In this document: positions 12,947-56,209 of the stretch, one piece after another
How positions within the stretch are numbered: the first letter of the stretch is position 1
Layout: the number at the start of each line of letters is the position of its first letter
Assembly: GCA_947626865.1 (NCBI GenBank)
Contig: CANQTZ010000001.1
Span: forward strand, 3,772-67,771
Source: an uncultured Clostridia bacterium
GTDB taxonomy: Bacteria > Bacillota > Clostridia > TANB77 > CAG-508
DNA length: 64,000 nucleotides
Reading direction: 5' to 3'
The notes under the pieces: model-generated
What the model was told of the DNA's origin: nothing
Databases searched by the model: none
What the model saw: only the letters and a program-made list of their open reading frames with translations
Program-made: the position numbers and the translations under genes

Positions 12947-13045
12947 GTGCCAAATGTACCATTTGGGACAGGCACCAACGATACATCAATGTATCATTTG
13001 GGACAGGCACCAATGGCACATCAATGTGCTTTTTGGGACAGGTAT
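12947..13045 (+). repeat. 35-bp tandem repeat array A1 (about 2.8 units)
   Basis: Units GTACCATTTGGGACAGGCACCAACGATACATCAAT (12956-12990) and GTATCATTTGGGACAGGCACCAATGGCACATCAAT (12991-13025), then the terminal half-unit GTGCTTTTTGGGACAGGTAT. Units are contiguous with no spacers. Confidence 0.9.
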
Positions 13046-13059
13046 AAATAACAAATGTA

Positions 13060-13861
13060 TCATTTTTTTTCACCCCTGATAACGTCCCTTACATATTCAT
13101 ATAAAATAATTCCTGTAGCCACAGATGCATTAAGACTTTCTGTTTTTCCAAGCATTGGAATTTTTACTTTTTTATCTGCCATTTCCTGTATATTAGTTTC
13201 CACGCCATTGGCTTCGTTCCCAATAATAATTACTTTTTTATGATAATCAACATCATAGATTGTATTTTTTGCTTGTAAAGAAGAAACCACTATTTCAAAC
13301 TTGTGTTTTTGAAGCTCTTTTAAGGTATTTTCTAAATTTTCACATTCTATAATCTTAACTCTAAATATGGCTCCCATAGTAGAACGCACAACCTTTGAAT
13401 TATAGCTATCAGCCGAATTTTTAGATATTAATATTTGAGTTAGACCAACACTATCTACAGTCCTTAGTATTGTTCCTAAATTTCCAGGATCTTGCACATT
13501 ATCTAGAGCAACTATAACATCTTGTGTATAATCAATTTCGATATTACTGTTATTTTTCTCTAATATTGCTAGAATTCCTTGAGGTGTCTGTACATCTGAC
13601 ACATATTTAAAAATCTTCTCTGGCACATAAATACATTCATATCTTGCAATTTCATACATCAATTCTTTTGGAATCAACTCATTATTTTCACAATCATCAC
13701 ACAGTACAATTTGCTTAATTAAAGCTTTTTCGCCGAATTGCTTCTGATACTAATTTAACACCTTCTATTACATACTCATTATTTAAATCACGATATTTTT
13801 TGTCTTTCAATTTCCTTATATGCTTAATCAAATCATTTTCTTTACTAGTAATTCTTTGCAT
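13060..13861 (-). pseudogene. TrmH/SpoU-family RNA 2'-O-methyltransferase (RlmB-like), frameshifted near 13735
   Basis: C-terminal 205 aa carry SpoU motifs (NVQDPGNLGTILRT, IIGNEANGV, IPMLGKTESLNASVATGI). Upstream ATG at 13861 after GGAAGGAG encodes MQRITSKENDLIKHIRKLKDKKYRDLNNEYVIEGVKLVSEAI, then reaches a stop. Deleting G13735 joins it in frame (..EAIGEKALIKQIVLCDD..). Confidence 0.8.
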
Positions 13862-13934
13862 TGCTTATCTCCTTCCTTTATAGTTGGTCTTTCAAACTTA
13901 AACCGCACAAATATCAAAACATTTAACAAAACAT

Positions 13935-14025
13935 AACCTGTCCCAAAAAGTACATTGATGTACCATTTGTGCCTGTCCCAGATGATACATTGATGTATCA
14001 TTTGTGCCTGTCCCAAACGGTACAT
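13935..14025 (-). repeat. 35-bp tandem repeat array A2 (inverted relative to A1)
   Basis: AACCTGTCCCAAAAAGTAC, ATTGATGTACCATTTGTGCCTGTCCCAGATGATAC, ATTGATGTATCATTTGTGCCTGTCCCAAACGGTAC. It overlaps the last 9 codons and the stop of mfd. Confidence 0.9.
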
Positions 14026-17000
14026 AGGAATTGTGTTACGTTGTTTAGTATTTGTGTTTCTTTGGTGCTTCCTATTTCTAGGGTTATCATTGGTTTTACG
14101 CCTGCTGAAAATTTTATTTTATTTGCAAATGTTTTGACTAATTGATTGATGTCTAGGTTGAATCCGTTGGCTTCAAATGTAAATATTACTGCTGTTTTAT
14201 GGCTAGCAATTTTGCTTATTTTTAGTTTTTTGGCTAGGTATTTTATTCTGGCTATGGCAATTAGGTTTTCTAGTTCTGGTGGCATGTTTCCAAAGCGGTC
14301 TATGATTTCGTCTATAATGTTTTGGATGTCTTGCTCATTTTTGCATAATGCTATGTTTTGATAGATTTCTATTTTTTGGTTTGCGTCTTGGATGTATTCA
14401 TCTGGTATATAGCTTGTTACATTTAAATCTATTTGTATGTCTTGTTCTGGTTCAATTTTTATTCCTTTCATTTCTTTTACAACTTCTTCTAGCAAGTTAC
14501 AATAAGTATCATAGCCAACTTGCTCTAGGTGCCCTGATTGGATTTCTCCAAGTAGGCTTCCTGCTCCTCTTATTTCTAGGTCTCTCATTGCTATTTTGAA
14601 GCCTGAGCCAAATTCTGTAAATTCTTTTATGGCTTTTAATCTCTTATCAGCCACTTCTGATAATAATTTGTCTTTTTTATAGGTAATATATGCGTATGCT
14701 TGCCTTTGGGCTCTTCCAACTCTTCCTCGTATTTGATATAACTGTGCTAAGCCCATTCTATCAGAATTTTCTACGATTATGGTATTGGCATTTGGTATGT
14801 CTATTCCAGATTCTAATATAGTTGTGCAAACTAATACATTGCTTTTTCCTTCAATAAATTCTTTCATAATTTCTTCTATCTTTGAACCTGTCATCTTTCC
14901 ATGCGCATAAACAACATTCGATTCTGGAACTAATCTTGATATGTCATCTGCCTTTTTTTGAATTCCTTCCACATTGTTATAAAGATAAAATACCTGTCCT
15001 TCTCTTTCCAATTCCTTAGTTATGGCTTCTTTGATTACTTCTTCATCATATTCCAATACATAAGTTTGAACTGGCTTCCTATTATGTGGTGGCTCATAAA
15101 TTACTGACATGTCACGTATTCCAACAATTGACATGTGCATAGTTCTCGGAATTGGAGTTGCTGTCATTGTTAAAACATCAATATTTGCCCTTAATTGTTT
15201 TATTTTTTCCTTATCTTTTACGCCAAATCGATGTTCCTCATCTATAATTAATAATCCCAAATCCTTAAAAATAACATCTTTACTTAAAATTCTGTGTGTT
15301 CCAATAAGAATGTCTACCTCTCCCAATTGCAATTTTTGAATTACTTCATTTTGATATTTTTTACTTTTAAATCTATTCAAAATTTCAACTTTGATAGGAA
15401 AATCTTTTACTCTTTCTTTAAATTCCTGATATTGTTGTTCTGCTAAAACAGTAGTTGGTGCTAGATAAGCCACTTGCTTATGATCCATAACTGCCTTAAA
15501 TGCTGCTCGCAAGGCAACCTCTGTTTTTCCATACCCCACATCACCACACAACAATCTATCCATTGGTCTTATACTTTCCATATCTTTTTTCACTTCTTCG
15601 ATGCAACGCAATTGGTCTCCAGTTTCTTGATAAGGAAATTTTGCTTCAAATTCGTTTTGCCAAGGTGTATCTTTACTAAATGCAAAGCCTTGTATTTTCT
15701 CTCTTTTTGCATATAGTTCAATTAATTCTTTGGCTACTTCTCTTAAATTATTTTTTACCTTTTTCTTTGTATTTTCCCACTCTTTACTACCTAAACGGTT
15801 AACCTTAGGTTGAACTCTATCTCCTCCAATGTATTTCCTAATGGAATCCAAATCATTAGTTGGTATATATAAAATATCATCATTTTTGTATTTTATTTTG
15901 ATGTAATCTTTGATTGTCCCATCTGCCTTTATTGTATTTACACCAATATAAATACCAATCCCATACCTTCTGTGTACCACATAATCGCCTATTTTTAAAT
16001 CAGCAAATACAACTTTTTCGCCTTCTTTAAATTCATTACTTACAATCTTTCGTCGTTTTTTCTCACCATCAATCAATTCATCTGCAACAATAACTAATTC
16101 TTTTGTTTCATAAAATTCAAATCCAGCAGATAATTTTCCAACTGTAATAGTTACAACTGCTTCATTTGCTTGCACCACAATTGTTTTGTTTAATTTTTCT
16201 TCTAATCTGTTCACAATCTCTTTTTCATCTAATAAAGCTTGCAATTTCTTCGCTTTTTCCTTAGTAGAAACCAAAATATACACTTTCTTCTTATCTTTAA
16301 CTGCTTTTTGTAAATCCGCAATCAAACCTTCTATCTCACTTTTATAATAATTTACTTCTCTATACTCAAACTTATATTTTTCTGCAACTAATTTATTTGA
16401 AACATCTTGTTTTTCTAAATATACCATTTGTCTTTTTTCAAATTTTTCTTGTACTTCTTCATAAGCAAGCACATTATTTATCGCATCTGGTATCATTTTT
16501 TCTTTCTCAAACAAAGCATTTTTTAAATTGTTATTGTCAATTTCAATATTATTTACTCTTTGCTTTATTTTACCAATTTCATCTAAAAATATACAATAAT
16601 TATTCGCTATATAATCAATAAGAGTTTCCTGTTGTTCATAAAAACTGTCAAAATATTTATCTATTTTACTAATGTAATTTCCGATTTTTATTTGTTCGAT
16701 ATCTTCTTGCAACATTTGTTTTTGCACATCTTTAGCGTCGATATTTTGTATTTTTTGGCATATATTGTCAATTGAATCTTCCAAAATATATTCATGTGCA
16801 GGATAAATAGTTGCTTTTTGTAAGGTATTTATTGACCTTTGACTAACTACATTAAAATTTCGTATGGAGTCAACTTCATCTCCCCAAAATTCAATTCTAA
16901 TCCCAACCGCTTCATCTGTTGATATATCTACAATTCCGCCTCGTATTGCAAATTGACCTCTTCCTTCAATTAAGTCACATCTTACATATCCTAGGTCAAT

Positions 17001-17465
17001 TAATTTTTTCTTGATTTCCTCTATGTTATAAGTTTTCCCTACTTCAAAATGTAATTCATTTGCATATAATTTAGATTGATTAGGCAATTTTTGTAGCATC
17101 GCTTCGATGGTAGTTACAATGATTAAATTTCTTTTTGTTTTTATTTCATTTAAAGCTTTTATTCTTTCATAAGGTAATTCCTTACTTTCTGCAATATAAT
17201 CATAAGTTACTACTTCTTTCTTTGGAAAAAATACTACATTATCTGTAAAATATTTTATATCTTCATATAATTTTTTGGCTTGAATTTCATTATAAGTAAT
17301 AAGTAATATTGGTTTTTTTGCAAATTCGTGAAGGGCCGTTGTTAATTGTACAACGGCAATGTTAGTTAAGCCCGATATGGCTATCGGACTTGTTTTGTTT
17401 TCTATTTGTTTTTCTAAATCAACAAATTTTGCTGATTTACCAAGTTCTCCTAAAATTGTATTCAT
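13998..17465 (-). CDS. mfd: transcription-repair coupling factor Mfd
   Basis: 1155 aa with a UvrB-homology N-terminus, CarD-like domain, superfamily-2 helicase motifs (GDVGYGKTEVA, DEEHRFGV, QLYQIRGRVGR) and a TRCF C-terminal domain. The last residues (..CTVWDRHK) are encoded by repeat array A2. Confidence 0.95.
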   Translation of the reverse strand: MNTILGELGKSAKFVDLEKQIENKTSPIAISGLTNIAVVQLTTALHEFAKKPILLITYNEIQAKKLYEDIKYFTDNVVFFPKKEVVTYDYIAESKELPYERIKALNEIKTKRNLIIVTTIEAMLQKLPNQSKLYANELHFEVGKTYNIEEIKKKLIDLGYVRCDLIEGRGQFAIRGGIVDISTDEAVGIRIEFWGDEVDSIRNFNVVSQRSINTLQKATIYPAHEYILEDSIDNICQKIQNIDAKDVQKQMLQEDIEQIKIGNYISKIDKYFDSFYEQQETLIDYIANNYCIFLDEIGKIKQRVNNIEIDNNNLKNALFEKEKMIPDAINNVLAYEEVQEKFEKRQMVYLEKQDVSNKLVAEKYKFEYREVNYYKSEIEGLIADLQKAVKDKKKVYILVSTKEKAKKLQALLDEKEIVNRLEEKLNKTIVVQANEAVVTITVGKLSAGFEFYETKELVIVADELIDGEKKRRKIVSNEFKEGEKVVFADLKIGDYVVHRRYGIGIYIGVNTIKADGTIKDYIKIKYKNDDILYIPTNDLDSIRKYIGGDRVQPKVNRLGSKEWENTKKKVKNNLREVAKELIELYAKREKIQGFAFSKDTPWQNEFEAKFPYQETGDQLRCIEEVKKDMESIRPMDRLLCGDVGYGKTEVALRAAFKAVMDHKQVAYLAPTTVLAEQQYQEFKERVKDFPIKVEILNRFKSKKYQNEVIQKLQLGEVDILIGTHRILSKDVIFKDLGLLIIDEEHRFGVKDKEKIKQLRANIDVLTMTATPIPRTMHMSIVGIRDMSVIYEPPHNRKPVQTYVLEYDEEVIKEAITKELEREGQVFYLYNNVEGIQKKADDISRLVPESNVVYAHGKMTGSKIEEIMKEFIEGKSNVLVCTTILESGIDIPNANTIIVENSDRMGLAQLYQIRGRVGRAQRQAYAYITYKKDKLLSEVADKRLKAIKEFTEFGSGFKIAMRDLEIRGAGSLLGEIQSGHLEQVGYDTYCNLLEEVVKEMKGIKIEPEQDIQIDLNVTSYIPDEYIQDANQKIEIYQNIALCKNEQDIQNIIDEIIDRFGNMPPELENLIAIARIKYLAKKLKISKIASHKTAVIFTFEANGFNLDINQLVKTFANKIKFSAGVKPMITLEIGSTKETQILNNVTQFLCTVWDRHK

Positions 17466-17519
17466 CTTTCTCTCCTTAAGTGTATCACGTTTTCTTTGAT
17501 AAATTTTGCTACACCATTT

Positions 17520-19634
17520 CTACTCCTTGTTATTTTTTTCACAATGGTTTCTATCTGGACAATTTTTACAACCGCTATCCTTTGACTTAACTTTTTTTAC
17601 TATTATTGCTATAACGACAACTGCAATAACACTTACTACTAAGATGTCGGCTAATTTTAATGTTCCATTTTCAATTCTACTTCCAATTTGATATACTATG
17701 CTTGCCAAAATCCAAGCCAGTATAGTTTGAAAAGCTACTGCTTTTAGCATTTGCTTAGTTCCACCTAATTCTCTTCTCATAGCACCTATTGCGCCAAAGC
17801 AAGGTGCACTAAATAAGTTAAATACCATAAAAGCATAAGCTGAAGCTGCTGTAAAGAAACTGAAAATTCCTCCACTTGCAAATATTTGACCAGCTTCTTG
17901 TACGTCTTCTGATAAACCTGCAATGACAGACATTGATGATATTACTTGTTCTTTTGCTACTAATCCTTGAATTGCTGAAACTGTTGCTCCCCAACTATTT
18001 TGTCCTATTATTGGATAAAAAATCCAAGCTATTTTACTTCCTATTGTTGCTAATATACTATTCTCTACTTCTACGCCATATTCCAATTTAAATGAAAATG
18101 ATACTAAAAACCATATAACAATAGAACACAATAAAATGATTGTTCCTGCTCTTTTTATAAAAGAGAATACTCTATCTGTTACATCTTTTGCTACATATTT
18201 TGCATTTGGAAGTTTATATTCTGGCAATTCTGAAATATATGTACTTGATGTGTTTTTGAATAGGAATTTTTTCATTATATATGCACTTGTTATAATTATT
18301 ATAATTGCAAAAAAGTACAAAGAGGCAGAAGCAATCCCTGCATTTTCTTTGAAAAAGTATCCTGCAAATAGAGCAATAATTGGTAATTTTGCACTACATG
18401 GAATAAATGGTGTAAGCATAGCTGTCATTTTTCTTTCTTGCTCATTTTCTACAATTCTAGCCCCCATAATGCCTGGTACTGAGCAACCTGAACCTATAAT
18501 GAACGGAATTAAACTTTTACCGCTTAGACCAATCTTTCTAAAGACTTTATCTAATAATAATGCTATTCTTGACATATATCCCGTTGTTTCTAGTAAAGAA
18601 ATGCAAATAAACAATATAATAAGTTGTGGAACAAATCCTAATACCGCACCAACACCTGCTATAATACCATCAACAACTAAACTTATTAGCATTTCTGAAG
18701 TTCCAATGTGAGTTAAGCCATTTTCTACCATTTGACTTACCCATTCAATACCTTCTCCTACTAAATCTACAGTAGCACTTCCTATTATTCCAACAGATAA
18801 GTAATATACCAAGAACATAATTACTACGAAAATTGGAAATGCAATCCATTTGTTCAAAAATATTTTATCTAGCTTGTCAGATATTGATTCTAGTTTCTTT
18901 TTTCTTTCAACACAAACTTTTTTTACTTTTTCTATAAAATCATATCTTTGTGTCGCAATTATTTCTTCTAAATCAGTATCATATTTATTTGCTAAATTAG
19001 TTGCTATTGCTTCGATTTCTGCTTTTTGATGTTCCATAAAATAATCATCTTTTTCTAATAATTTAACTGCTATAAATTTCTTATGTTTTAAATTAATTAA
19101 CTTTTGTATATTTTGAATAGAATTTTCTATCTCACTATCAAAGACTGCAGTCCTTTCTAAATCACTCTTTTCAATTTCATGTATTAACTTTTTAATTCCT
19201 GTTTCCTTCAAAGCAGAAATCTTTAACACCTTCACTCCTAGCAAATCTTGCAACTTCTTCTCATCAATAAAAATACCTTTTTTCTCCAAAATATCTGCCA
19301 TATTCAAAGCAATAATTACTTTTACATCCAGTTCCATAAGTTGTGTTGTCAAATACAAGCTTCTTTCTAAAGAAGTAGCATCTACAATATTAATAATAAC
19401 ATCCGGATTTTCATTTAACACAAATTCACGAGAAACCTTCTCTTCCAAACTATATGGACTTAATGAATACACTCCTGGAAGATCTGTAATTTCATAATTA
19501 GTCCCCTTAATAACACCAGTCTTCTTCTCTATAGTAACTCCTGGCCAATTACCAATTTTCGCATTCATACCAGTTAAACAATTAAACAACGTTGTCTTAC
19601 CACTATTTTGATTACCAATCAATGCTACTTTCAT
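17520..19634 (-). CDS. feoB: ferrous iron transporter FeoB (with short Cys-rich C-terminal tail)
   Basis: N-terminal G-domain (GNQNSGKTTLFN, DLPG), polytopic membrane domain, C-terminal ..GCKNCPDRNHCEK. Confidence 0.95.
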   Translation of the reverse strand: MKVALIGNQNSGKTTLFNCLTGMNAKIGNWPGVTIEKKTGVIKGTNYEITDLPGVYSLSPYSLEEKVSREFVLNENPDVIINIVDATSLERSLYLTTQLMELDVKVIIALNMADILEKKGIFIDEKKLQDLLGVKVLKISALKETGIKKLIHEIEKSDLERTAVFDSEIENSIQNIQKLINLKHKKFIAVKLLEKDDYFMEHQKAEIEAIATNLANKYDTDLEEIIATQRYDFIEKVKKVCVERKKKLESISDKLDKIFLNKWIAFPIFVVIMFLVYYLSVGIIGSATVDLVGEGIEWVSQMVENGLTHIGTSEMLISLVVDGIIAGVGAVLGFVPQLIILFICISLLETTGYMSRIALLLDKVFRKIGLSGKSLIPFIIGSGCSVPGIMGARIVENEQERKMTAMLTPFIPCSAKLPIIALFAGYFFKENAGIASASLYFFAIIIIITSAYIMKKFLFKNTSSTYISELPEYKLPNAKYVAKDVTDRVFSFIKRAGTIILLCSIVIWFLVSFSFKLEYGVEVENSILATIGSKIAWIFYPIIGQNSWGATVSAIQGLVAKEQVISSMSVIAGLSEDVQEAGQIFASGGIFSFFTAASAYAFMVFNLFSAPCFGAIGAMRRELGGTKQMLKAVAFQTILAWILASIVYQIGSRIENGTLKLADILVVSVIAVVVIAIIVKKVKSKDSGCKNCPDRNHCEKNNKE

Positions 19635-19865
19635 CTAGTTAATCACCTCTATTTCTATCTGACTCAAATCTTCTTTCCTAAGACACAACTCATAATCCCT
19701 AAGCTCTATATCAATTGGATCTCCCATAGGAGCCACCTTTTTAATTTTAACTTCAACCCCTCTTGTAAGCCCCATATCTAACAAATGCCTTCTTACTTCC
19801 CTATTGGAAACATGTAATTTAACAACCTTAGCTTTATCTCCTACCTTAAGTTCATCTAATCTCAT
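19635..19865 (-). CDS. feoA: ferrous iron transport protein FeoA
   Basis: 76 aa, LDELKVGDKAKVVKL...RRHLLDMGLTRGVEVKI (FeoA/SH3-like). It abuts feoB. Confidence 0.9.
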   Translation of the reverse strand: MRLDELKVGDKAKVVKLHVSNREVRRHLLDMGLTRGVEVKIKKVAPMGDPIDIELRDYELCLRKEDLSQIEIEVIN

Positions 19866-19913
19866 TTTTACCTACCTTTCTTTGTGTATTATATTACAAT
19901 TCTAAATTATAGT

Positions 19914-20056
19914 CAATGTACCATTTGGGATGTGCCATCTGGGACAGGCACCAACGATACATCAATGTGCCGTTTGGGACAGGCACTAATGATACATTGA
20001 TGTGCCGTTTGGGACAGGCACTAATGATACATTGATGTGCTTTTTGGGACAGGTTA
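19914..20056 (+). repeat. 35-bp tandem repeat array B1 (about 4 units)
   Basis: CAATGTACCATTTGGGA, TGTGCCATCTGGGACAGGCACCAACGATACATCAA, then two copies of TGTGCCGTTTGGGACAGGCACTAATGATACATTGA, ending with GTGCTTTTTGGGACAGGTTA. Confidence 0.9.
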
Positions 20057-20094
20057 TTTGGACAATAATATTATAAATTTTTCTTCATACAGCA

Positions 20095-20330
20095 GTTACA
20101 GGATAATGGTTTCAAGGCGAGTTGCCCCTGCAGTATAAGAATTTGAATGAAATGTCGAATGTGACTGGAGAAATTTTAGAAATTCTATGCAATTTTATGG
20201 AAATAGTTCACTATTGTGAAAGGGTGCCATAAAATAAATTAGAATTTCTTAAATTTCGTAACAAGCCGAGACATGTAATGAAATTCTTATACTGCAGGGG
20301 TAGCTCGCCTTGAAACCATTATCCAGTAAC
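20095..20330 (-). repeat. hairpin repeat element, copy 2 (full length, inverted orientation)
   Basis: Arms GTTACAGGATAATGGTTTCAAGGCGAGTTGCCCCTGCAGTATAAGAATT / AAATTCTTATACTGCAGGGGTAGCTCGCCTTGAAACCATTATCCAGTAAC. The core is the reverse complement of the copy 1 core. Confidence 0.9.
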
Positions 20331-20344
20331 ATACAACAGGCTAG

Positions 20345-20405
20345 TAACCCGTCCCAAAAAGTACATTGATGTATCGTTGGTGCCTGTCCCAAATGGCACA
20401 TCACA
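20345..20405 (-). repeat. 35-bp tandem repeat array B2 (inverted relative to B1)
   Basis: TAACCCGTCCCAAAAAGTAC, ATTGATGTATCGTTGGTGCCTGTCCCAAATGGCAC, ATCA. Confidence 0.85.
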
Positions 20406-21380: not shown

Positions 21381-21389
21381 TGTTTATTT

Positions 21390-28593: not shown

Positions 28594-28717
28594 TCCTTGC
28601 TTTGTTATATTTAGGTTTTTAATAGGTTTTGCCTATAAACCTTTGGTGTGTTTTGATATACTATATCATAAAATGATTGGAATTGCAACTACTAGATAAT
28701 GCTTTCAAAAAATTTTT

Positions 28718-28877
28718 GTTACAGGATAATGGTTTCAAAGCGAGTGTTCCCTTGCAGTATAAGATTTTCATTACATGTCACGGTTTGTTGCGAAATTTAA
28801 GAAATTCTAATTTATTTTATGGCACCCTTTCTAAGTACGTGAACTATTTCCATAAAATTGCATAGAATTTCTAAAAT
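28718..28877 (+). repeat. hairpin repeat element, copy 3 (right arm missing)
   Basis: Starts GTTACAGGATAATGGTTTCAAAGCGAGTGTTCCCTTGCAGTATAAGATTTTC and matches the core up to ..GCATAGAATTTCTAAAAT. It ends exactly at the ATG of ORF 28878. Confidence 0.85.
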
Positions 28878-34952: not shown

Positions 34953-34955
34953 AAC

Positions 34956-41255: not shown

Positions 41256-41257
41256 TA

Positions 41258-46030: not shown

Positions 46031-46031
46031 T

Positions 46032-48982: not shown

Positions 48983-51682
48983 TTAATATTCCACTTCTAA
49001 CTTACTTCCTTTTTGCGTTTTAGATACTATTATTTTTTTATCCAATCTTTCCTTTAATTCAGTCACATGGCTTATTATACCAATTAACTTATTATCTCCT
49101 GCTAGCTTAATCAAAGTATTTATTGCTTGTTCCCTAGATTCCATATCTAACGTTCCAAAACCTTCATCTATAAACAAAGTATCAATTACCACTCCTCCTG
49201 AATAACTTTGTATAATATCAGATAATCCTAAAGCAAGAGCAAGAGCTGCTTTGAATGATTCCCCTCCAGATAGTGATTTTACATCTCTTATTTTTCCGTT
49301 GTAATTATCTAAAACATCTAAGTCAAGAGCCATTTTTTCTGATATTTTATCTGATGATTTCTTTCTTAGTAGCATATATCTATTATCTGTCATATTAATT
49401 AATCTCTTATTAGCTTCATTGATTATCATATCAAAATATGTAGCTTGTACATATTGTTCAAATGCAATTTTTCTCTTACCTACTGCTGTTCCACTTGCTA
49501 ATTTAGATAATTCATCAATTCTTGCAACTTTAACCATCTGTTCTTTTAGTAAGTCTGCTGTTTTTTGCAAAGCTTTATTAAATTTTTCATTTGAATCTAA
49601 GTTACTTTTAAGTGTAAGTTGTATTTTCTTTTGCTCTTTTTGTTTATTTATAAATTCCTCTAATTGTGCTTCATCTTTAGAAATATCAATAATTTCTTTT
49701 TTAGATATTTCTTTTTCTAATGATTCTAATTTTGTTTTGTTGGATATTTGCGCTTCCTTATAATTTTCAATTCTTTCTTTTATTTTAGCTATTTCATCTT
49801 CACCTAACAAATTCTTTTTATAATCTTTTTCGTTTTTAAATCCAAGTGTTTTTATTGTTTCAATAAAATCTGCATATTTTTCTTGATACTCTTTATCTGT
49901 AATTTCTTTGATTTTTTTTGTGTTATTAAGTAATGTTTTGTTTTTAATCATTTGGTCAGCATCTTCTTTTATTCTTTTATTGAACTCATCTTTAAATTCG
50001 TCAAATTCAAATTCAGCAATATCAGTGTATTTTTCAGTAACTTTATAATAAGTAGTTTCAAATTTATCTTTTATATTGGTTTTCTTTTCATCTATTTCGT
50101 TTTTTTGTTTTTGTATTTTTTCTACATATTCTTCTAAATTAAATTTGCTTTTTTTACTTTCAGGAATTTCATTAAGAATAGAATCGTATTTTGTTTTTAC
50201 AACTGTTATTTGCTCTTTATATTTAGAATTTTCTTTTTCTAGTTTTTCTTTTTCTTCTTTTAATTCTTCTAATTCTTCTTTTGTAAGAACGCTTTTGCTT
50301 TTCTTTGCTTTTACAGGATGCTCTATACTACCACATACAGGACAAGGTTTACCTTTTTCAAGTTTTTCTGCAATAATACCTGCTTGTTCTTTGAAAAAAG
50401 CATCTTCTTGTTTTAAATATTCTTTTACTTTATCTTGATATTTTTTATTACTTTTTTCATATTTCTTACTAAGTGTTTCTTTTTCTTTGTTTAGTTTAAT
50501 TAAGTCATCAATTTTGACATTTAATTCATGTATTTTTTTGTTTTCATCTTGTATTTGGGTGTATTCCTTTATTATTGTTTTTAATTCTTCTATTCTTTTT
50601 GTATTTGCATTATTTTTCTTTTCTGTTTCTTTTTCAAGTTCAATTTCTTCTTCAAGCTTCTTTATTTGTTTATTATTTTTTTGTATTTCTTCATCTAATT
50701 TTTCAAGTATTTTTTCTTTTGGAAGTACAGATGCAAGTATTTTTTCATTTGTTTTTACTTTTTTTTCATCTTCTTTAATACTTTTTCCTTGCTCTTTTAA
50801 TTCGTTTTTGATTATTTTTAATTTTTGATATTCTTCTACTTTTTTATTTTGCCCTTTTATTTTTGTTATTTGGCTTTCTAATTTTTTTGTATCTTTTGCG
50901 ATTTTATCTATTTCTTTTTCAAAGTCTTTGTATTCCTGCTTTTGCTTTTCTATTTCATTTGCTAGACTCTTTAAAATTTGTTCTATATCTGCTTCAACTA
51001 TTTTTTTATAATCAATTAGTTCAACACTTATTGGTTTTTCTTTCCATATTATATTTTCTGCGTTTGTTTCAAATGTTGTTTTTAGAGTTTCTAATTCTGC
51101 TCTATTATTTTTAGCAAATTCATTTAAATTTTTAGTTATTATATTATATATTTCTGTTTCAAATATTTTTCTAAAGACTTCTGTTCTATCATCACTTTTT
51201 GCAAATAACACATTTATAAATTCTCCTTGGGCTAACATTGCAATTTGCTTAAATTGTTTTGAGTTAATGCCAATTATTTCAATTATTTTTTCATTTACAT
51301 TTGAAATTTTTGTTATTATTTTATCTTCATATGATAGTGATGCTTCTGCAATGTTTTTTGTCACACCTTCCCCTCTATTCTTTTGTCTTTCATAAGATGG
51401 TGTCCTTTTTACAGTATATATTTTGTCTTTATGTTCAAATATTAATTCTACATAAGTATCTTCGGTTGTTGCAAAATCACTTCTAAGCGAAGATATTGGT
51501 CTATTGGATCCACTTACATCATTAAATAGTGCAAATGATATTGCATCAAATATAGTAGTTTTTCCTGCACCAGTATCACCGGTAACTAAAAATAAACCAC
51601 TGTTACCTAATTTTTCAAAATCAATGATTGTTTCTTCTCTATATGGTCCAAATGCGGACATTGTTAATTTTATTGGTTTCAT
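48983..51682 (-). CDS. sbcC: exonuclease SbcC (Rad50-like ATPase)
   Basis: 899 aa. N-terminal Walker A GDTGAGKTT, long coiled-coil with zinc hook CPVCG, C-terminal LSGGE and FIDEGFGTLD. Confidence 0.92.
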   Translation of the reverse strand: MKPIKLTMSAFGPYREETIIDFEKLGNSGLFLVTGDTGAGKTTIFDAISFALFNDVSGSNRPISSLRSDFATTEDTYVELIFEHKDKIYTVKRTPSYERQKNRGEGVTKNIAEASLSYEDKIITKISNVNEKIIEIIGINSKQFKQIAMLAQGEFINVLFAKSDDRTEVFRKIFETEIYNIITKNLNEFAKNNRAELETLKTTFETNAENIIWKEKPISVELIDYKKIVEADIEQILKSLANEIEKQKQEYKDFEKEIDKIAKDTKKLESQITKIKGQNKKVEEYQKLKIIKNELKEQGKSIKEDEKKVKTNEKILASVLPKEKILEKLDEEIQKNNKQIKKLEEEIELEKETEKKNNANTKRIEELKTIIKEYTQIQDENKKIHELNVKIDDLIKLNKEKETLSKKYEKSNKKYQDKVKEYLKQEDAFFKEQAGIIAEKLEKGKPCPVCGSIEHPVKAKKSKSVLTKEELEELKEEKEKLEKENSKYKEQITVVKTKYDSILNEIPESKKSKFNLEEYVEKIQKQKNEIDEKKTNIKDKFETTYYKVTEKYTDIAEFEFDEFKDEFNKRIKEDADQMIKNKTLLNNTKKIKEITDKEYQEKYADFIETIKTLGFKNEKDYKKNLLGEDEIAKIKERIENYKEAQISNKTKLESLEKEISKKEIIDISKDEAQLEEFINKQKEQKKIQLTLKSNLDSNEKFNKALQKTADLLKEQMVKVARIDELSKLASGTAVGKRKIAFEQYVQATYFDMIINEANKRLINMTDNRYMLLRKKSSDKISEKMALDLDVLDNYNGKIRDVKSLSGGESFKAALALALGLSDIIQSYSGGVVIDTLFIDEGFGTLDMESREQAINTLIKLAGDNKLIGIISHVTELKERLDKKIIVSKTQKGSKLEVEY

Positions 51683-52821
51683 CTACATATACTCCTATTT
51701 ATTATATCTTTTATAATCTTTTTTTGTTCATCATCTAGTCTGATATTATTTTGAAATTCATAAAAGTCGTCAAATAATTCAAATTCATCTTTTTGTTTTA
51801 ATTCTTCTATGTTTTCTAACTCTACATTTTGGATACTTGATTTTATATTAGAAATTTCTAAACTTAATGTGTTTGGATAGACTCTTCTAATTTGACCTAT
51901 TGCATCATATACAGGTTCTTTGTTTGTAATAATAGCTTTAATATAATCTTGGGTATTTGTATCTTTATAATTTTCTTTATTTAATAATTCTTCTATTGGA
52001 CCTTTGATTACTCTCATATCTCTTAATGGTTTTAAAGGAATTAATTTATATTCGACTGATTTGTTGTTTTTTATGTTGATTAATACTGCTGATTTATTAT
52101 GATTTGCTTCTGAAAATGAATATTTTAACATTGTTCCTGAATATCTAATTGTATCTTTTCCTATTCGTTGTGGCCCATGAATATGGCCTAAGGCAACATA
52201 GTCAAATTTATCGAAATTAGATGAATCTACATTTTCTATTCCACCAACATTTAGTGTTGTTTCTGATTCACATGTTTCAGGACTTTTATTTCCTGCTGTT
52301 ACAAATTGATGTGCCATTAATATGTTTACTTTATTCTCATCAATTTTTTCATTATCCACTATTAATTTTATGGCTTCATTATATGTATCTATTTTTTCAG
52401 TTTCAAAGTATTGTTTGACTTCAATTGGTTTTATAAATGGAAGCATATAAATATTGATTTTATCTGATAGTTCTATACTTGTTATTTTGCCGTTGTATGT
52501 TGTTTGGATGTATAAACCATCATTTTCAAATATTTTGCTTCCAAAATTTAATCTTTCTTTTGAATCATGATTTCCTGAAATGATAAAGACTTTAATTTTT
52601 AATATTTTAATTAATTTATTTAAGAAATCATTTAATACATCTACAGCATCTGCTGGAGGTATACTTCTATCATATATGTCTCCAGATATTAAGACTGCAT
52701 CTACTTTTTCTTTTTTTGCAATTTTTATAATTTCTTTTAGTATGTATTCTTGATCTTCTAATAGTGATTGCTCATATATTATTTTGCCTATGTGTAAATC
52801 GGATAAATGTAATAATTTCAT
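51679..52821 (-). CDS. sbcD: exonuclease SbcD (Mre11-like nuclease)
   Basis: MKLLHLSDLHIGK, GDIYD, GNHD, GHIHG phosphoesterase motifs. 4-nt overlap with sbcC. Confidence 0.95.
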   Translation of the reverse strand: MKLLHLSDLHIGKIIYEQSLLEDQEYILKEIIKIAKKEKVDAVLISGDIYDRSIPPADAVDVLNDFLNKLIKILKIKVFIISGNHDSKERLNFGSKIFENDGLYIQTTYNGKITSIELSDKINIYMLPFIKPIEVKQYFETEKIDTYNEAIKLIVDNEKIDENKVNILMAHQFVTAGNKSPETCESETTLNVGGIENVDSSNFDKFDYVALGHIHGPQRIGKDTIRYSGTMLKYSFSEANHNKSAVLINIKNNKSVEYKLIPLKPLRDMRVIKGPIEELLNKENYKDTNTQDYIKAIITNKEPVYDAIGQIRRVYPNTLSLEISNIKSSIQNVELENIEELKQKDEFELFDDFYEFQNNIRLDDEQKKIIKDIINRSICR

Positions 52822-52890
52822 GTTAAATTTCTTTCCTTTCTTGCTTCATTAAAAGGCACATATAGAAATGAAAGCTTACATTCTTTCAAA

Positions 52891-53337
52891 CTATTTTTTC
52901 CTTTCATTATTTTTCCATTCCATTGTATATATTTTTTCTCCTGTTTTTTCTTGCAGATTAATGGCTTTGTTTTTAAATCCCATTGCTACAAAAAATAATA
53001 TAGCATTTATGTTTTTTTCATATACTTTTAGTTTTAAGTAGTTGTTTTTGTTCTGACAATAATGCATTAATTTGCTACCAATTCCTTGTCTTATGGAGTC
53101 TTTTCTAACAAATATGCTAGTTATTTCTTGATTTTTATCTATGCTAATGAATGCTTTTATTTCGTTTGTACTGGTGCAATATATGTATGTTTCCGCTTCA
53201 AATAAATACTCATTTTTTACTCTGTTGAAATTTTCTAACCAATGATCTTTTTCGATAAAATAATGAGCATCGAAATTTCCTTTTGTCCATAAAGTCATTA
53301 CTTTTGTTGTGTCTTCTTTTTTAAATTTTCTAATCAT
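52891..53337 (-). CDS. GNAT-family N-acetyltransferase
   Basis: 148 aa with the acetyl-CoA motif IRQGIGSKLM. Confidence 0.8.
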   Translation of the reverse strand: MIRKFKKEDTTKVMTLWTKGNFDAHYFIEKDHWLENFNRVKNEYLFEAETYIYCTSTNEIKAFISIDKNQEITSIFVRKDSIRQGIGSKLMHYCQNKNNYLKLKVYEKNINAILFFVAMGFKNKAINLQEKTGEKIYTMEWKNNERKK

Positions 53338-53425
53338 TCGTTCCTCCCTATTATTGAATGATTATATAATTTTACTAATATTTTGTCAATGTTGAAAAAT
53401 TGTGTTATCCTTGCTATTTTTACTG

Positions 53426-53670
53426 GCTAGTTACAGCTTAATGGTTTCAAGTGTGTGTCCCCACATAATATAAGATTTTCATTGCATGTCTCGGCGTTAT
53501 TTCGAAAATTAAGAAATTCTAATTTATTTTATGGCACCCTTTCACAACAGTGAACTATTTCCATAAAATTGCATAGAATTTCTAAAATTTCTCCATACAC
53601 ATTCGACATTCCATTCAAAATCTTATATTATGTGGGGACACGCACTTAAAACCATTAAGCTGTAACTAGC
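53426..53670 (+). repeat. hairpin repeat element, copy 4 (full length)
   Basis: Arms GCTAGTTACAGCTTAATGGTTTCAAGTGTGTGTCCCCACATAATATAAGATTTTC / AAAATCTTATATTATGTGGGGACACGCACTTAAAACCATTAAGCTGTAACTAGC around the conserved core. Confidence 0.9.
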
Positions 53671-54062
53671 TATGTTTTTTCATTTCTTTTTTATTTTTTT
53701 CTATTCTTTCTAACTCAAGCTGAGATAATTCTTTTACTGAATAATAATCTCCATGACTAATACAAGCAATTATCATTCTTAAAAATTTTTCATATGTTTC
53801 GTCATTTACCATATTTTTACATTCCTTTTTTAGTTATTTTTTTTACTTCTTTTTATACCCTCAGTATATATATTATTTTAGCTGGTAACACTAATAGTGT
53901 AACGTTTTTTTGTTTATGATAGCATATTTTTCCTTGAAATTCAAGTATTTTTTCGATTTTTGATGACTTTAAAATTCACTACTGTTACAGTAAAAATGTG
54001 TTCAACATTTTTACGTTGCTTGCTATACTAATAATATACTTTATATTAGGCGGTGGTACGAG

Positions 54063-54404
54063 ATGAATTCAGTTTCTAAAATAGATATTGATAAAACTTT
54101 TGGTAAAATTCTACGAGACTTTCGTATTAAAAATAAAATGACACAAGAACAATTATCTGAAAAATTAGGCATTTCTTTAAAATATATTTCTAGAATTGAA
54201 AATGGCAATAATGGTGTCAAAACACAAACTTTAATAAATTATATGAATATTTTAGGAATCACACCAGATTTGATATATAAGTCTTTCATTACAAATCCAG
54301 ATGTGATAACAAATGTCGAAATATCAGAAAAAGTATGCACACTTTCCCAAGATAAAAAGCAATTTTTGCTTGCAATTATAGATTTACTTCAAAACTTAGA
54401 ATAA
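54063..54404 (+). CDS. XRE-family helix-turn-helix transcriptional regulator
   Basis: FGKILRDFRIKNKMTQEQLSEKLGISLKYISRIENG. Confidence 0.85.
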   Translation: MNSVSKIDIDKTFGKILRDFRIKNKMTQEQLSEKLGISLKYISRIENGNNGVKTQTLINYMNILGITPDLIYKSFITNPDVITNVEISEKVCTLSQDKKQFLLAIIDLLQNLE

Positions 54405-54442
54405 AAGAGGTTATCTTATTATAGATACCTCTTTCTTTTTTT
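54405..54442. terminator. bidirectional hairpin terminator between the XRE gene and the aminopeptidase gene
   Basis: AAGAGGTTATC..TAGATACCTCTT followed by a T-run. Confidence 0.6.
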
Positions 54443-54454
54443 ATTATTATTTTT

Positions 54455-55852
54455 TTATTCACTCCAAAATGCTTTATAAGTTTTATAAGCCGAATAAATA
54501 TCATATTTACTTGTTACTTCATAAGGGGCATGCATAGACAATACTGGAACACCACAATCTATTACATCTGTACCTTTATTAGCTAAAATGTATGCTATTG
54601 TGCCTCCCCCACCAATATCCACTTTACCTAATTCTGTAAGTTGATATTGAATTTTGTTTTTATCTAATACATTTCTAACCCAAGCAACAAATTCTGCATT
54701 AGCATCAGAACCACCAGATTTACCTCTAGAACCTGTATATTTTACTAAAGCTATTCCTTTTCCTAAAAATCCTGCATTATGCTTATCAGAAACATTAGCA
54801 TAAATTGGGTCAAAACCTGCATCTACATCTGAAGATAACATTTTTGAAAAGCAAAATACTCGGTCTAGTAAATTAGGCTTGTTAACTCCTAATTTATTTA
54901 ATATTTCAGAGATAAAGAAATCAAACATATGTGATTCCATTCCAGTATTTCCCATGCTACCAATTTCTTCTTTATCAGATAAAATGCAAACTGCTGTATT
55001 TTTCACTTTATCCAATTCCATCATAGCTGCTAAAGATGTGTAAGCACAAACTTTATCATCTTGCCCATATCCTGCAACCATACTCTCATCCAATCCTAAC
55101 GTTCTAGCTTTAAAAGCTGGAACCAATTCAATTTCTGCACTTGTTAAATCAACTTCTGTAATTCCATACTTTTGATTTAGAATATTTAGGATATTCAATT
55201 TTATTTTCTCAGATACTTTTTTATCTTTGTAAGGAATACTTCCAATTAATAAATTAAGATTCTCTCCTTCAATTCCATTTTTCAGCTTTTTCTCCATCTG
55301 CTCTTGCGCTAAATGTGGCAATAAATCTGTAATTGTGAAAATAGGATCATTTTCATCTTCACCTATATTTACCTCTATCTTTTCACCATTTGTCTTAACA
55401 ATTACACCATGAATACTCAAAGGAATTGTTGTCCATTGATACTTCTTAATTCCACCATAATAATGTGTTTTAAAATAAGCAAATCCACCATCCTCATATA
55501 ATGGATTAGGTTTCAAATCTAATCTTGGTGAATCTACATGAGACCCTATAATATGCATTCCATTTTCAATTGAATTCTCTCCAATAATAGCTAAATACAT
55601 ACTTTTACCACGATTAATAAAATATACTTTGTCCCCTACCTTTAACGAATCTAATTTGCTAATATCTTGATACCCATTTTCATCTGCTAATTTTTGCGCT
55701 TGCTTTATAAATTCTCTCTCCGTTTTAGCAACATTTAAAAAATCCATATATTTTTTCGACAATTGAAATATTTTCTCCTTCTCCTGTTCATCCGTATGTT
55801 CCCATCCACTTAGCTTTACATTAAAAAGTTTCTCTTTAAGCTCTTCTCCCAT
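54455..55852 (-). CDS. M18-family aminopeptidase
   Basis: 465 aa. GSHVDSPRLDLKP, HYYGGIKKYQW, DDKVCAY, SMHAPYE, typical of aminopeptidase 1 / aspartyl aminopeptidase-like enzymes. Confidence 0.85.
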   Translation of the reverse strand: MGEELKEKLFNVKLSGWEHTDEQEKEKIFQLSKKYMDFLNVAKTEREFIKQAQKLADENGYQDISKLDSLKVGDKVYFINRGKSMYLAIIGENSIENGMHIIGSHVDSPRLDLKPNPLYEDGGFAYFKTHYYGGIKKYQWTTIPLSIHGVIVKTNGEKIEVNIGEDENDPIFTITDLLPHLAQEQMEKKLKNGIEGENLNLLIGSIPYKDKKVSEKIKLNILNILNQKYGITEVDLTSAEIELVPAFKARTLGLDESMVAGYGQDDKVCAYTSLAAMMELDKVKNTAVCILSDKEEIGSMGNTGMESHMFDFFISEILNKLGVNKPNLLDRVFCFSKMLSSDVDAGFDPIYANVSDKHNAGFLGKGIALVKYTGSRGKSGGSDANAEFVAWVRNVLDKNKIQYQLTELGKVDIGGGGTIAYILANKGTDVIDCGVPVLSMHAPYEVTSKYDIYSAYKTYKAFWSE

Positions 55853-55941
55853 TTTTCTCCTCCTCTTTCATAAATTATTTGCCATCTCTATTCTAAAATT
55901 TCGCTGGCAAAGTCATTGTATCACAACCTCAATTATTCTGT

Positions 55942-56000
55942 CAATGTGCCGTTTGGGACAGGCACAAATGATACATTCAGGTGCTTTTTGGGACAGGTTA
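55942..56000 (+). repeat. 35-bp tandem repeat array C1
   Basis: CAATGTGCCGTTTGGGACAGGCACAAATGATACATTCAG, then GTGCTTTTTGGGACAGGTTA. Confidence 0.85.
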
Positions 56001-56116
56001 TTTATGATATATTTATGTATTTTTGAAAAAAATTTAAGTTAATACATTTTTTAAGAATAAGAGATAATACTAGAGCCACATAGATTTACGGACATTTTTA
56101 TTTAGTTTTTTTATTT

Positions 56117-56209
56117 TATACCTGTCCCAAAAAGCACATTGATGTACCGTTGGTGCCTGTCCCAGATGGCACATGGATGTATCGCTAGTGCCTGTCCCAA
56201 ACGGCACAT
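56117..56209 (-). repeat. 35-bp tandem repeat array C2 (inverted relative to C1)
   Basis: TATACCTGTCCCAAAAAGCAC, ATTGATGTACCGTTGGTGCCTGTCCCAGATGGCAC, ATGGATGTATCGCTAGTGCCTGTCCCAAACGGCAC. Confidence 0.9.

Follow-up and report, generated by a model that had tools for sequence, protein, structure and literature searches.

What are the short arrays of tandem 35-bp units that occur as inverted pairs in this DNA of an uncultured Clostridia bacterium, and by what means could they have come to lie there? The window is the whole analysed stretch of 64,000 nucleotides, and all positions are counted from its first letter. Three pairs of arrays, denoted A, B, and C, are found in it, and their parts are as follows.

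Array A1, 12947..13045, + strand: ragged outer end, two full 35-bp units, and inner cap at 13026-13045 (GTGCTTTTTGGGACAGGTAT, direct reading).
Pair A enclosed segment, 13046..13933, − strand: SpoU/TrmH-family RNA methyltransferase gene.
Array A2, 13934..14025, − strand: inner cap at 13934-13953 (GTACTTTTTGGGACAGGTTA, read as the reverse complement) and two full units.
Array B1, 19914..20056, + strand: partial outer unit, three full units, and inner cap at 20037-20056 (GTGCTTTTTGGGACAGGTTA, direct reading).
Pair B enclosed segment, 20057..20344, no strand: palindromic element of ~240 bp at 20095-20330.
Array B2, 20345..20405, − strand: inner cap at 20345-20364 (GTACTTTTTGGGACGGGTTA, with the variant GGGACGGG, read as the reverse complement), one full unit, and ragged outer end.
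Array C1, 55942..56000, + strand: one full unit and inner cap at 55981-56000 (GTGCTTTTTGGGACAGGTTA, direct reading).
Pair C enclosed segment, 56001..56117, no strand: AT-rich DNA of 117 bp.
Array C2, 56118..56209, − strand: inner cap at 56118-56137 (GTGCTTTTTGGGACAGGTAT, read as the reverse complement) and two full units.

The units read ATGT(G/A)(C/T)C...GGGACAGGCAC..., with no conserved GTAG. Exact GGGACAGGCAC occurs 11 times in the 64-kb window (0.14 expected), and the looser motif TYTGGGACRGG (TYTGGGACRGGYWH) occurs 17 times against 0.09 by chance, a number matched by none of 100 shuffles. All 17 copies of the looser motif are inside the six arrays, none is elsewhere in the window, and their spacing within every array is exactly 35 bp. 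Tandem Repeats Finder calls the period of 35 in four of the six arrays; B2 and C1 are below the length detectable by the program. The orientation is + then − in every pair (A1/A2, B1/B2, and C1/C2), giving three head-to-head pairs. The motif counts and the exact spacing thus confirm the six arrays and their pairing as given in a preliminary description of this DNA, and the enclosed segments are also as described there (a gene, a segment with a hairpin element, and AT-rich DNA), measuring 888, 288, and 117 bp, respectively.

The ends of the arrays should be noted. On the inner side, each of the six arrays is closed by a cap, GT(G/A)CTTTTTGGGAC(A/G)GGT. The same half-unit had been described as common to all inner ends; all six arrays are capped, but the consensus requires widening, with GT(G/A)C at that place, and GGGACGGG occurs in one of the caps. 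As for the outer ends, the described ATGT(A/G)CC(A/G)TTTGGG is common, but its extension to CAATGT is found in B1 and C1 only.

All six arrays are intergenic, except that A2 overlaps the end of mfd (13998-17465) by 28 bp; the last nine codons and stop of this gene come from the outer unit of A2. A1 has genes of this methyltransferase type on both sides: the SpoU/TrmH-like gene stops at 13060, and the next SpoU gene starts at 12918. The SpoU/TrmH gene enclosed by pair A (PF00588, E=1e-40) consists of two ORFs, 13715-13861 and 13060-13677, and is apparently frameshifted. The palindromic element in pair B belongs to a second repeat family with other copies at 12176-12388, 28717-28877, and 53430-53667. 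The outer end of B1 gives TTGACT, a −35-like hexamer 17 bp from TATAAT upstream of feoA, and that of C1 gives TTGACA, 18 bp from TG-n-TACAAT upstream of an M18 aminopeptidase gene. C2 lies upstream of a promoter-like tttggttatact of the DAO/Rieske gene, which is conserved in relatives. Judging from these consensus matches, TTGAC(A/T) at the outer ends may possibly serve as −35 boxes of the adjoining genes. A YhgA-like 'Transposase_31' gene is located at 11192-11995; it has no flanking arrays and was set aside as a candidate for the enzyme acting on them.

Such an arrangement could suggest host regulatory DNA, namely tandem operators for a transcription factor or a nucleoid protein at divergent promoters, multiplied by slippage with no link to a transposase. 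The arrays adjoin gene starts and ends, strong promoter-like sites (11 of 12 positions matched) extend into B1 and C1 at their outer ends, and the copy number varies between strains in a VNTR-like manner. However, the neighbours (feoA, M18 peptidase, DAO/Rieske protein, a small exporter, SpoU, and mfd) are functionally unrelated, and a close relative has the same gene pair around a 120-bp region free of arrays. Two further observations described below, on the arms of the unit and on the capped arrays of relatives, also disagree with operators, and this explanation is considered quite unlikely.

The unit consists of two arms of ~11 bp, complementary to each other and to the arms of the neighbouring units, that enclose the conserved motif (G)GGGACAGG(CAC). 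In 64 units taken irrespective of pairing, 63% of the stem cells are paired versus 48% in shuffles; none of 500 shuffles reaches this fraction, and sliding the partner columns leaves 32-44% paired. The stem has a covariation score of 0.42 versus 0.21, though kinship among units can inflate such covariation counts. A core with a perfect flanking stem of at least 5 bp is found in 18 of 96 independent metagenome families (2.1 expected). The arms thus show the covariation of a stem that encloses the conserved core, as in a short hairpin-forming extragenic unit. Either of two hairpins may form, since 63 informative positions include 29 Watson-Crick pairs within the unit and 21 across the unit junction. 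The arms differ by lineage yet stay complementary, which points to a hairpin and not to a duplex operator. As a single DNA strand, the whole of pair C folds back at −56 kcal/mol (z = −9.9).

Hairpins may function in RNA as well. In addition to a mobile origin, the arrays could act mainly as tandem hairpins in 5' or 3' untranslated regions, stabilising or insulating transcripts or attracting an RNA-binding protein, as has been reported for REPs. The start of A2 within the final codons of mfd, the many metagenome arrays that begin 0-15 nt past a stop codon, and the hairpin-forming units are consistent with this, and REPs are reported to be transcribed with effects on mRNA (PMC3733652). The arrays, however, occur in both orientations with respect to transcription, so that the motif would be read as GGGACAGG or CCUGUCCC depending on the transcript, and at pair C the DAO promoter is downstream of the array, leaving C2 probably outside that transcript. 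Neither a match to an Rfam family nor terminator-like sites were found for the arrays; across the window and 20 array-bearing loci, tRNAs were the sole Rfam matches. A predominant role as RNA is therefore rather unlikely, though it deserves more weight than the other alternatives discussed here.

Several narrower candidates were rejected. A sponge of the CsrA type, or loops mimicking or masking Shine-Dalgarno sequences, as the main reading disagrees with the occurrence of both orientations and with at least one array upstream of a promoter. ToxI-like type III antitoxin arrays have a repeat of ~36 nt upstream of ToxN/AbiQ, but the genes downstream here are feoA, M18 peptidase, DAO/Rieske, exporter, and SpoU. 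A sigma-54 promoter is suggested by GGCAC followed by TTGC in some high-GC units, but at inconsistent spacing (3, 4, or 5 nt). CRISPR is rejected because the units are contiguous, without spacers.

The arrays in relatives connect the unit with a transposase. Metagenomes were scanned with a pattern of two cores spaced 29-45 bp. At one resulting locus (L038, 29% GC), a 262-aa gene lies between a + array and a − array, and its product matches PF01797 Y1_Tnp (E=7e-15); NHVHL is the HUH motif of this protein, and RYIHQNP contains the tyrosine. Using tblastn, Y1 homologues were also found beside arrays in six metagenome loci of 56-65% GC (L043, L076, L123, L087, L030, and L095). These high-GC homologues are distant (27-31% identity), and the GGGACAGG core still flanks them; GGGACAGGCAC is on the left of Y1 and its complement on the right in at least five of the six. 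The exact core in metagenome loci was preset in the scan, and independent evidence comes from the flanks, caps, and neighbour genes only.

Conversely, five clusters of Y1 homologues were retrieved by protein only. In all five, from low-GC gut-metagenome Clostridia, Y1 is at a locus with the order RNase J, GH15, Y1, gap, and head-to-head arrays with the core GGGACAGG(C/T)(A/C)C flank it. The unit length is 35 bp wherever a flanking array has two or more units. A Y1_Tnp gene of ~260 aa with head-to-head 35-bp arrays is thereby seen in six lineages (L038, L151, L153, L157, L158, and L159). The arrays of L151, L153, and L159 have GGGACAGGT caps turned toward the gene, and six and five units flank it in L157. 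The gaps between caps and Y1 gene in L151, L153, and L159 are similar to those of the SpoU/TrmH gene in pair A, which is ~70 bp (upstream) and 15 bp (downstream) from the caps. Inverted GGGG[AT][CG]A[CG] flanks are present in all six lineages and in five high-GC loci (L043, L076, L123, L087, and L030). The gene of Sporomusa termitida has GGGGTCAG on both sides, and that of Acetoanaerobium noterae has the looser AGGGACGG. The array-flanked gene is rare on plasmids (13 of 72,556 records).

The window arrays are tied to this Y1 family by the period, core, cap, and + then − topology, which recur in the arrays flanking Y1 in relatives. A profile search of the window in six frames detected no Y1 gene, the best hit (E=0.1) being on an unrelated HTH, and exact-protein look-ups with Mfd and FeoB gave no match. 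No Y1 gene is identified for this species, and the link between array and transposase therefore rests on relatives. On these grounds, we take the arrays to be copies, scattered over the chromosome, of the repeat arrays that form the ends of a TIRtron-like element, of the TIRYT / TnpA_REP subclass 2.1 type, with a probability of about 0.78. The Y1 (HUH) gene of the element is single-copy and apparently domesticated. In general terms, the arrays are a REP/BIME-like mobile repeat family, a kind already known, in a little-studied host group. The capped arrays around Y1 in every relative looked up also disagree with the operators considered above.

The preliminary description had pictured transposon-end-like or REP/BIME-like sites and a RAYT/TnpA_REP or Tn7-like partner. 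The former is supported by the head-to-head arrays of the 35-bp unit carried by the Y1 gene of relatives, and the partner there is a RAYT-like, TIRYT-type Y1 gene flanked by the same unit, core, and cap; Tn7-like genes are without support. Several subterminal repeats are typical of Tn7 and Mu ends, and from the inside the caps read 5'-..CCTGTCCC.., which would fit DDE transposons (Tn7, Mu, or Tn402-like) having several sites at each end, with the caps as outward TGT...-type tips of large elements. However, the transposons so delimited, 13934-20056 and 20345-56000, hold housekeeping genes (mfd, feoAB, sbcCD, and others) with no DDE transposase, TnsABC, or TniQ, and the caps in relatives point inward to the Y1 gene. 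This alternative is contradicted by the gene content and is extremely improbable.

The array-flanked Y1 proteins of relatives are closer to the published TIRYTs dau2153 (31% identity, E=1e-30) and pfs148A (32%, E=1e-25) than to the E. coli RAYT (~20%, E=1e-4). The NCBIfam model REP_Tyr_transpos (NF047646) gives 57.8 and 63.8 bits, under its cut-off of 80. Four of the proteins have weak C-terminal matches to HTH_23/HTH_28, and a C-terminal HTH is a described trait of TnpA_REP subclass 2.1 (PMC6006769). The published TIR motif is GGGGWSAS (PMC3733652), with which GGGGACAG is compatible. These comparisons indicate that the gene encodes a long-type Y1/HUH transposase resembling the published TIRYTs.

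TIRtrons and TIRYTs were described by Di Nocera et al. (2013, PMC3733652) and equated with TnpA_REP subclass 2.1 by Quentin et al. (2018, PMC6006769). The present system resembles them in having a Y1/HUH transposase that exceeds the E. coli RAYT in length and bears an HTH-like C-terminal tail, in placing its gene between inverted repeats with GGGG[AT][CG]A[CG], and in that the repeats are also dispersed as dimers or clusters. It differs in that the 'TIR' is a tandem array of one to six hairpin-forming 35-bp units with a defined cap, in that the window units carry TGGGACAG, which fits 7 of 8 positions of the motif, and in its hosts, uncultured low-GC gut Clostridia. With REP/BIME-RAYT (E. coli TnpA_REP) and the REPIN-RAYT of Pseudomonas, it shares a Y1 gene that is single-copy and inherited vertically, the position of this gene between inverted copies of a short palindromic extragenic repeat, intergenic scattering of the same repeat, and doublets that fold into long hairpins. 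Unlike REP/BIME, the units lack the GTAG/GTRG tag found at the foot of the palindrome in classical REPs, conservation is concentrated in an 8-11-nt motif enclosed by the arms, the units are direct tandem repeats and not of alternating orientation, and the protein, ~20% identical to the E. coli RAYT, is under the NCBIfam equivalog cut-off.

The Y1_Tnp fold is also that of IS200/IS605 (IS608 and ISDra2) and their miniature derivatives. The ends of these elements are not inverted repeats, and they are multi-copy and often plasmid-borne, whereas here five lineages have the Y1 gene at the same conserved place in the chromosome, with inverted arrays as flanks, and an autonomous insertion sequence of this type was therefore rejected. 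BOX elements of Streptococcus pneumoniae are Gram-positive modular intergenic repeats with variable internal tandem units between two complementary end modules; they have no known dedicated transposase and no GGGACAGG motif, and the likeness is in form only. A literature search with the core sequence returned unrelated primer matches only.

The unit number varies among strains at four arrays. B1 has two units in one strain (L160), the sequence of which departs from that of the window at the first base after the cap, and B2 has at least two full units in another (L161). Two strains (L019 and L021) have one or two units plus an extra partial unit at C1 and three units at C2. The array positions are the same in all sampled strains, with no transposition event seen. 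In a relative at 86% identity, the orthologous site is empty (120 bp), which could be a deletion and not the state before insertion; in a relative at 89% identity, a different GGGGACAG palindromic element occupies the same site. The closest public matches are rabbit-gut MAGs bearing the labels uncultured Bacilli or Clostridia. Related MAGs (L003, L011, L012, and L018) carry arrays on further contigs as well, and solo arrays in relatives (L003, L005, L011, and L151 at 3649-3719) indicate that pairing is not universal. The earlier proposal that the arrays are not slippage products agrees with the capped, Y1-linked arrays of relatives, but the shifts in unit number between strains are slippage-like. 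The segment enclosed by pair C has one orientation in three strains.

This constant orientation bears on an inverton, in which each pair would be an invertible switch with a site-specific recombinase flipping an enclosed promoter-bearing segment. Pairs B and C do lie between divergent genes and enclose AT-rich DNA, and the segment enclosed by the palindromic element in the 89%-identical relative is reverse-complemented between the two assemblies L163 and L164. The latter flip, however, may be an assembler ambiguity, since the arms (~85 bp) are longer than common k-mer sizes. Furthermore, a complete gene lies inside pair A and the Y1 gene inside the pairs of relatives, the neighbourhood has no gene for an invertase or a tyrosine recombinase, and the conserved promoter of the DAO gene is outside the pair. 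An inverton is thus considered very improbable.

For the TIRtron-like copies, a mechanism can be proposed on the basis of IS200/IS605, which use single-strand chemistry, with hairpins near the ends and cleavage a few nucleotides from the hairpin. In single-stranded DNA, the units would fold into hairpins, which a Y1 enzyme encoded elsewhere in the genome, its gene being expected between GH15 and gap with ATGTGCCGTTTGGGACAGGCAC-type units on its sides, would bind via the conserved motif. The enzyme would cut and rejoin one strand at or beside GGGACAGG, spreading array pairs to new intergenic sites, and the unit number would afterwards drift through slippage or unequal recombination. A head-to-head pair without a transposase gene would be a non-autonomous form, comparable to REPIN or BIME. 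The cap ends the array on the inner side, immediately after GGGACAGGT; its sharp definition points to a specific cut site, and we infer that cleavage may occur at the cap.

A bolder but improbable extension is that the capped pairs are cassette sites, at which Y1 would cleave the DNA precisely after GGGACAGGT and attach foreign DNA to the cut end, the space between the caps being an exchangeable cargo slot. The slot would then hold the transposase gene in relatives and the SpoU gene, a miniature element, or 117 bp of AT-rich DNA here, and the divergence of L160 at the first base after the B1 cap would be accounted for. Such sites, if real, would be the counterpart of gene-cassette capture in a single-strand process driven by an HUH enzyme.

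REP/RAYT systems have been studied almost wholly in Proteobacteria. For TIRYT / subclass 2.1, the literature describes simple terminal inverted repeats only, with no REP-like partner sequences, and Quentin et al. found no REP-like sequences near subclass 2.1 genes (PMC6006769). The new point is that a subclass 2.1 group of gut Clostridia has a dispersed hairpin-forming repeat family in tandem arrays, the 8-11-nt core of which is unchanged while the protein diverges to ~30% identity. With the arrays as a concrete substrate, this class of Y1 enzymes becomes accessible to biochemical tests. They may also supply promoter elements to adjoining genes, they break short-read assemblies, and their strain-variable unit number could serve as a typing marker.

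The AT-rich window (28.4% G+C) has 11 copies of the exact core GGGACAGGCAC, where 0.14 would be expected, and 17 of the looser motif TYTGGGACRGGYWH, where 0.09 would be. All 17 copies of the looser motif fall within six arrays, which are those located in the preliminary description, and no solitary copy lies outside them in the 64-kb window. The claimed 35-bp tandem period is reproduced, since the spacing of the copies within an array is exactly 35 bp and Tandem Repeats Finder reports a period of 35 for four of the six arrays. All three pairs run + then −, that is, head-to-head as claimed. The sharp common inner terminus is likewise found on every array as a cap, GT(G/A)CTTTTTGGGAC(A/G)GGT(T/A)(A/T), past which similarity ceases. 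The outer ends are ragged partial units sharing ATGT(A/G)CC(A/G)TTTGGG, instead of the form beginning with CAATGT described previously.

Array pairs and their surroundings
A1 12947..13045 (+) and A2 13934..14025 (−): between mfd and the second SpoU gene; enclosing a SpoU/TrmH-family gene, read in two frames
B1 19914..20056 (+) and B2 20345..20405 (−): between feoAB, a divergent operon, and the gene of a small exporter; enclosing a palindromic element of 240 bp from a different repeat family
C1 55942..56000 (+) and C2 56118..56209 (−): between the divergent M18 aminopeptidase and DAO/Rieske oxidoreductase genes; enclosing 117 bp of AT-rich DNA

The enclosed segments are thus as varied as had been stated, and the genes flanking the arrays are ordinary chromosomal genes. 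The mfd gene ends inside A2, with its final nine codons and stop codon. An Rfam search of the window matched tRNA and no other family. The outer ends of B1 and C1 give TTGACT and TTGACA, respectively, 17–18 bp from good −10 boxes. Judging from these matches, the outer ends may supply −35 hexamers to feoA and the M18 peptidase gene.

Promoter-like sites at the outer array ends (each 11/12 consensus matches; the best two in their regions)
19888-19916, − strand: B1, feoA
55915-55944, − strand: C1, M18 peptidase gene

The adjacent SpoU-family methyltransferase genes at 12414-12918 and 13060-13861 (−) are each read as two ORFs in differing frames, and much longer genes nearby are intact. The splits may mark true pseudogenes or stem from sequence errors at this place.

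The preliminary description suggested a search for RAYT/TnpA-REP genes, and a Y1 (IS200-like) transposase gene of the TIRYT type was found beside arrays in relatives; there is no Y1 gene in the 64-kb window. In locus L038 (29% G+C), a + array and a − array bracket a 262-aa gene whose product matches Pfam Y1_Tnp (E=7e-15), carries the HUH motif NHVHL, and has a tyrosine within RYIHQNP. Homologues detected by tblastn with this protein (27–31% identity) directly adjoin arrays in six further metagenome loci. In at least five of the six, GGGACAGGCAC lies to the left of the homologue and its complement to the right, regardless of gene strand. The protein family has 1810 members at E≤1e-5.

For the converse test from the protein, five Y1 clusters were retrieved by exact protein sequence. 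All five share one locus (RNase J, GH15 glycosidase, Y1, and GAPDH), as is typical of a gene that is inherited vertically in a single copy. In each, Y1 is flanked head-to-head by arrays with the core GGGACAGG(C/T)(A/C)C, and where an array beside Y1 has at least two units, the unit is 35 bp. Gene-facing GGGACAGGT caps in loci L151, L153, and L159 lie about 100–130 bp upstream and 6–24 bp downstream of Y1, and L157 has six units on one side of Y1 and five on the other. An additional array stands beside the GH15 gene, in the RNase J-GH15 gap in L151 and L157 and past GH15 in L158. The Y1 neighbours RNase J, GH15 glycosidase, and GAPDH are kept in L151, L153, L157, L158, L159, and L038; the Y1 proteins of the first five are just 57–75% identical to that of L038. 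In L158 the left array is separated from Y1 by an extra PRiA4_ORF3-domain gene. Y1 homologues are rare in plasmid records (13 of 72,556). Two such matches come from cultured Firmicutes, Sporomusa termitida with inverted GGGGTCAGG and Acetoanaerobium noterae with inverted AGGGACGGTT around the Y1 gene.

Di Nocera et al. 2013 reported Y1 genes with long terminal inverted repeats (TIRs), not GTAG-tagged REPs, on either side, and coined the names TIRtrons for the elements and TIRYTs for the enzymes; GGGGWSAS is common to many TIRs, and certain TIR families occur dispersed, as dimers or in clusters (PMC3733652). TIRYTs correspond to TnpA_REP subclass 2.1 of Quentin et al. 2018, long proteins with a C-terminal HTH-like domain, near whose genes REP-like sequences were not found (PMC6006769). 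One RAYT group extends to Clostridia (Bertels et al. 2017, PMC5581495). The array-flanked protein of the relatives is 31–32% identical to two published TIRYTs (E=1e-30 and 1e-25), whereas it is just 20% identical to the E. coli RAYT (E=1e-4) and falls below the cut-off of the NCBIfam REP-associated tyrosine transposase model. It has weak HTH_23/HTH_28 matches at its C-terminus, and GGGGACAG agrees with GGGGWSAS. By these sequence comparisons the protein fits the TIRYT/subclass 2.1 group.

The window arrays share the anatomy of the repeats flanking the TIRYT-type Y1 gene in relatives, which supports the REP/BIME-like reading offered earlier. The system belongs to a known kind, the Y1 transposase-associated repeats of the TIRYT group, and is a variant in three features: its repeats come as tandem arrays of hairpin units that end in a defined cap, the arrays are scattered as inverted pairs, and uncultured gut Clostridia are the hosts.

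The units covary as hairpins. Counts over eleven arm pairs flanking the core were taken from an alignment of 64 distinct units, which came from the window and Y1-linked loci and were picked irrespective of pairing. Paired cells amount to 63%, versus 48% after shuffling (0 of 500 shuffles reach 63%) and 32–44% with slid partner columns; the covariation score is 0.42, versus 0.21 and 0.20 or less, respectively. Compensated arms include GGTTAAGTT/AACTTAACC, GGTTAATC/GATTAACC, GGCTAA/TTAGCC, and ATGTCCCATTT/AAATGGGACAT. Since the arms are alike throughout an array, pairing is also possible between the 3′ arm of one unit and the 5′ arm of the following unit, and the conserved motif would then be a single-stranded stretch separating hairpins. 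At 63 informative positions, 29 Watson-Crick pairs form within the unit and 21 across the junction, numbers that do not tell the registers apart. Folded as single-stranded DNA, pair C turns back on itself (−56 kcal/mol, z = −9.9); array B1 alone gives z = −3.6.

By analogy, a Y1 enzyme encoded elsewhere in the genome may bind the folded units on single-stranded DNA. It would cut and rejoin at or beside GGGACAGG to give the sharp cap, and the array pairs would be a non-autonomous mobile form. The analogy is with IS608 and E. coli TnpA_REP, reportedly treated by Ton-Hoang and colleagues in 2012, a study cited in PMC3733652.

The core, together with a portion of the 3′ arm, served to scan species-representative genomes. 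The window's 35-bp unit was found among them in rabbit-gut MAGs only, with three units in tandem in one (L003), and a sister unit, GTGGGGACAGGCACTAATGCCACAT, occurs in four loci (L005, L011, L012, and L018). Metagenome contigs were scanned for two cores 29–45 bp apart, and at least 120 stretches were found in source samples of 29–73% G+C; the exact core is dictated by this search pattern, and coding Gly-Thr repeats form part of the matches listed. Independently of the pattern, among the matches listed, half of the loci have G just 5′ of the core and nearly half have C just 3′ of it; the upstream flanks are rich in A and the downstream flanks in T. In 18 of 96 independent families among these matches, a perfect stem of 5 bp or more surrounds the core, versus 2.1 expected from exchanging flanks among loci. 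One family (L022, L037, and L052; contigs of 48–52% G+C) has 35-bp units with the same truncated GGGGACAGGT ending, and the L022 arrays also form a head-to-head pair. At the end of one strain's contig (L020, 1-20), a + unit switches directly into a − unit at GGCAC. The small palindrome probably caused a de Bruijn-graph artefact here, though the switch may be a real rearrangement.

Unit number is unstable between strains. Same-species strains, identified via identical M18 peptidase, FeoA, and exporter proteins, differ in unit number at C1, C2, B1, and B2. The pair C site is empty in a near relative: the orthologous peptidase/oxidoreductase site of an 86%-identical relative has 120 bp only, without an array (four contigs). 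In the strains compared, the orientation of the segment between C1 and C2 does not change. In one low-coverage contig (L160), the sequence diverges from the window directly past GGGACAGGTTA of the B1 cap and beyond it has no match among the other sequences compared. In a relative with an 89%-identical M18 peptidase (L163-L165), the orthologous pair C site upstream of the peptidase gene holds a different 215-bp palindromic element containing GGGGACAG, with (TGAGACAGTGGG)x3 and GGGGACAGTCC in its arms. In L164 the inner 40 bp of this element are the reverse complement of those in L163 and L165, through either a true inversion or an ambiguity of assembly. In all three species the oxidoreductase gene has kept its promoter-like tttggttatact, which is not part of C2; C2 therefore sits upstream of the oxidoreductase promoter, not within its transcript.

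Other elements in the window
12176-12388, 20095-20330, 28717-28877, and 53430-53667: second repeat family, a MITE-like palindromic element of ~240 bp whose inverted arms are long
11192-11995, − strand: YhgA-like PD-(D/E)XK 'Transposase_31' (Rpn-type) gene (PF04754, E=1e-16)
32853-48857, − strand: UvrD-like helicase (699 aa), DEAD helicase (2099 aa, MZB/DUF1998 domain), Eco57I/N6-type methyltransferase (1590 aa), and SNF2 helicase (941 aa)
48983-52821: sbcCD
63319-63633: 72-bp tandem repeat, 4.4 copies, 90% matches, inside the minus-strand ORF 63182-63892

One copy of the ~240-bp element lies exactly between the pair B caps; the three others, 85–91% identical to it, are not beside arrays. The Transposase_31 gene is about 180 bp from a copy of this element and about 950 bp from A1, and no 35-bp arrays flank it. 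The genes of 32853-48857, with sbcCD after them, are likely a DISARM-like defence island, as judged by Pfam domains only. The ORF with the 72-bp tandem repeat is near FtsK/SpoIIIE-like and FHA-domain genes, and the repeat probably encodes a repetitive, low-complexity protein segment.
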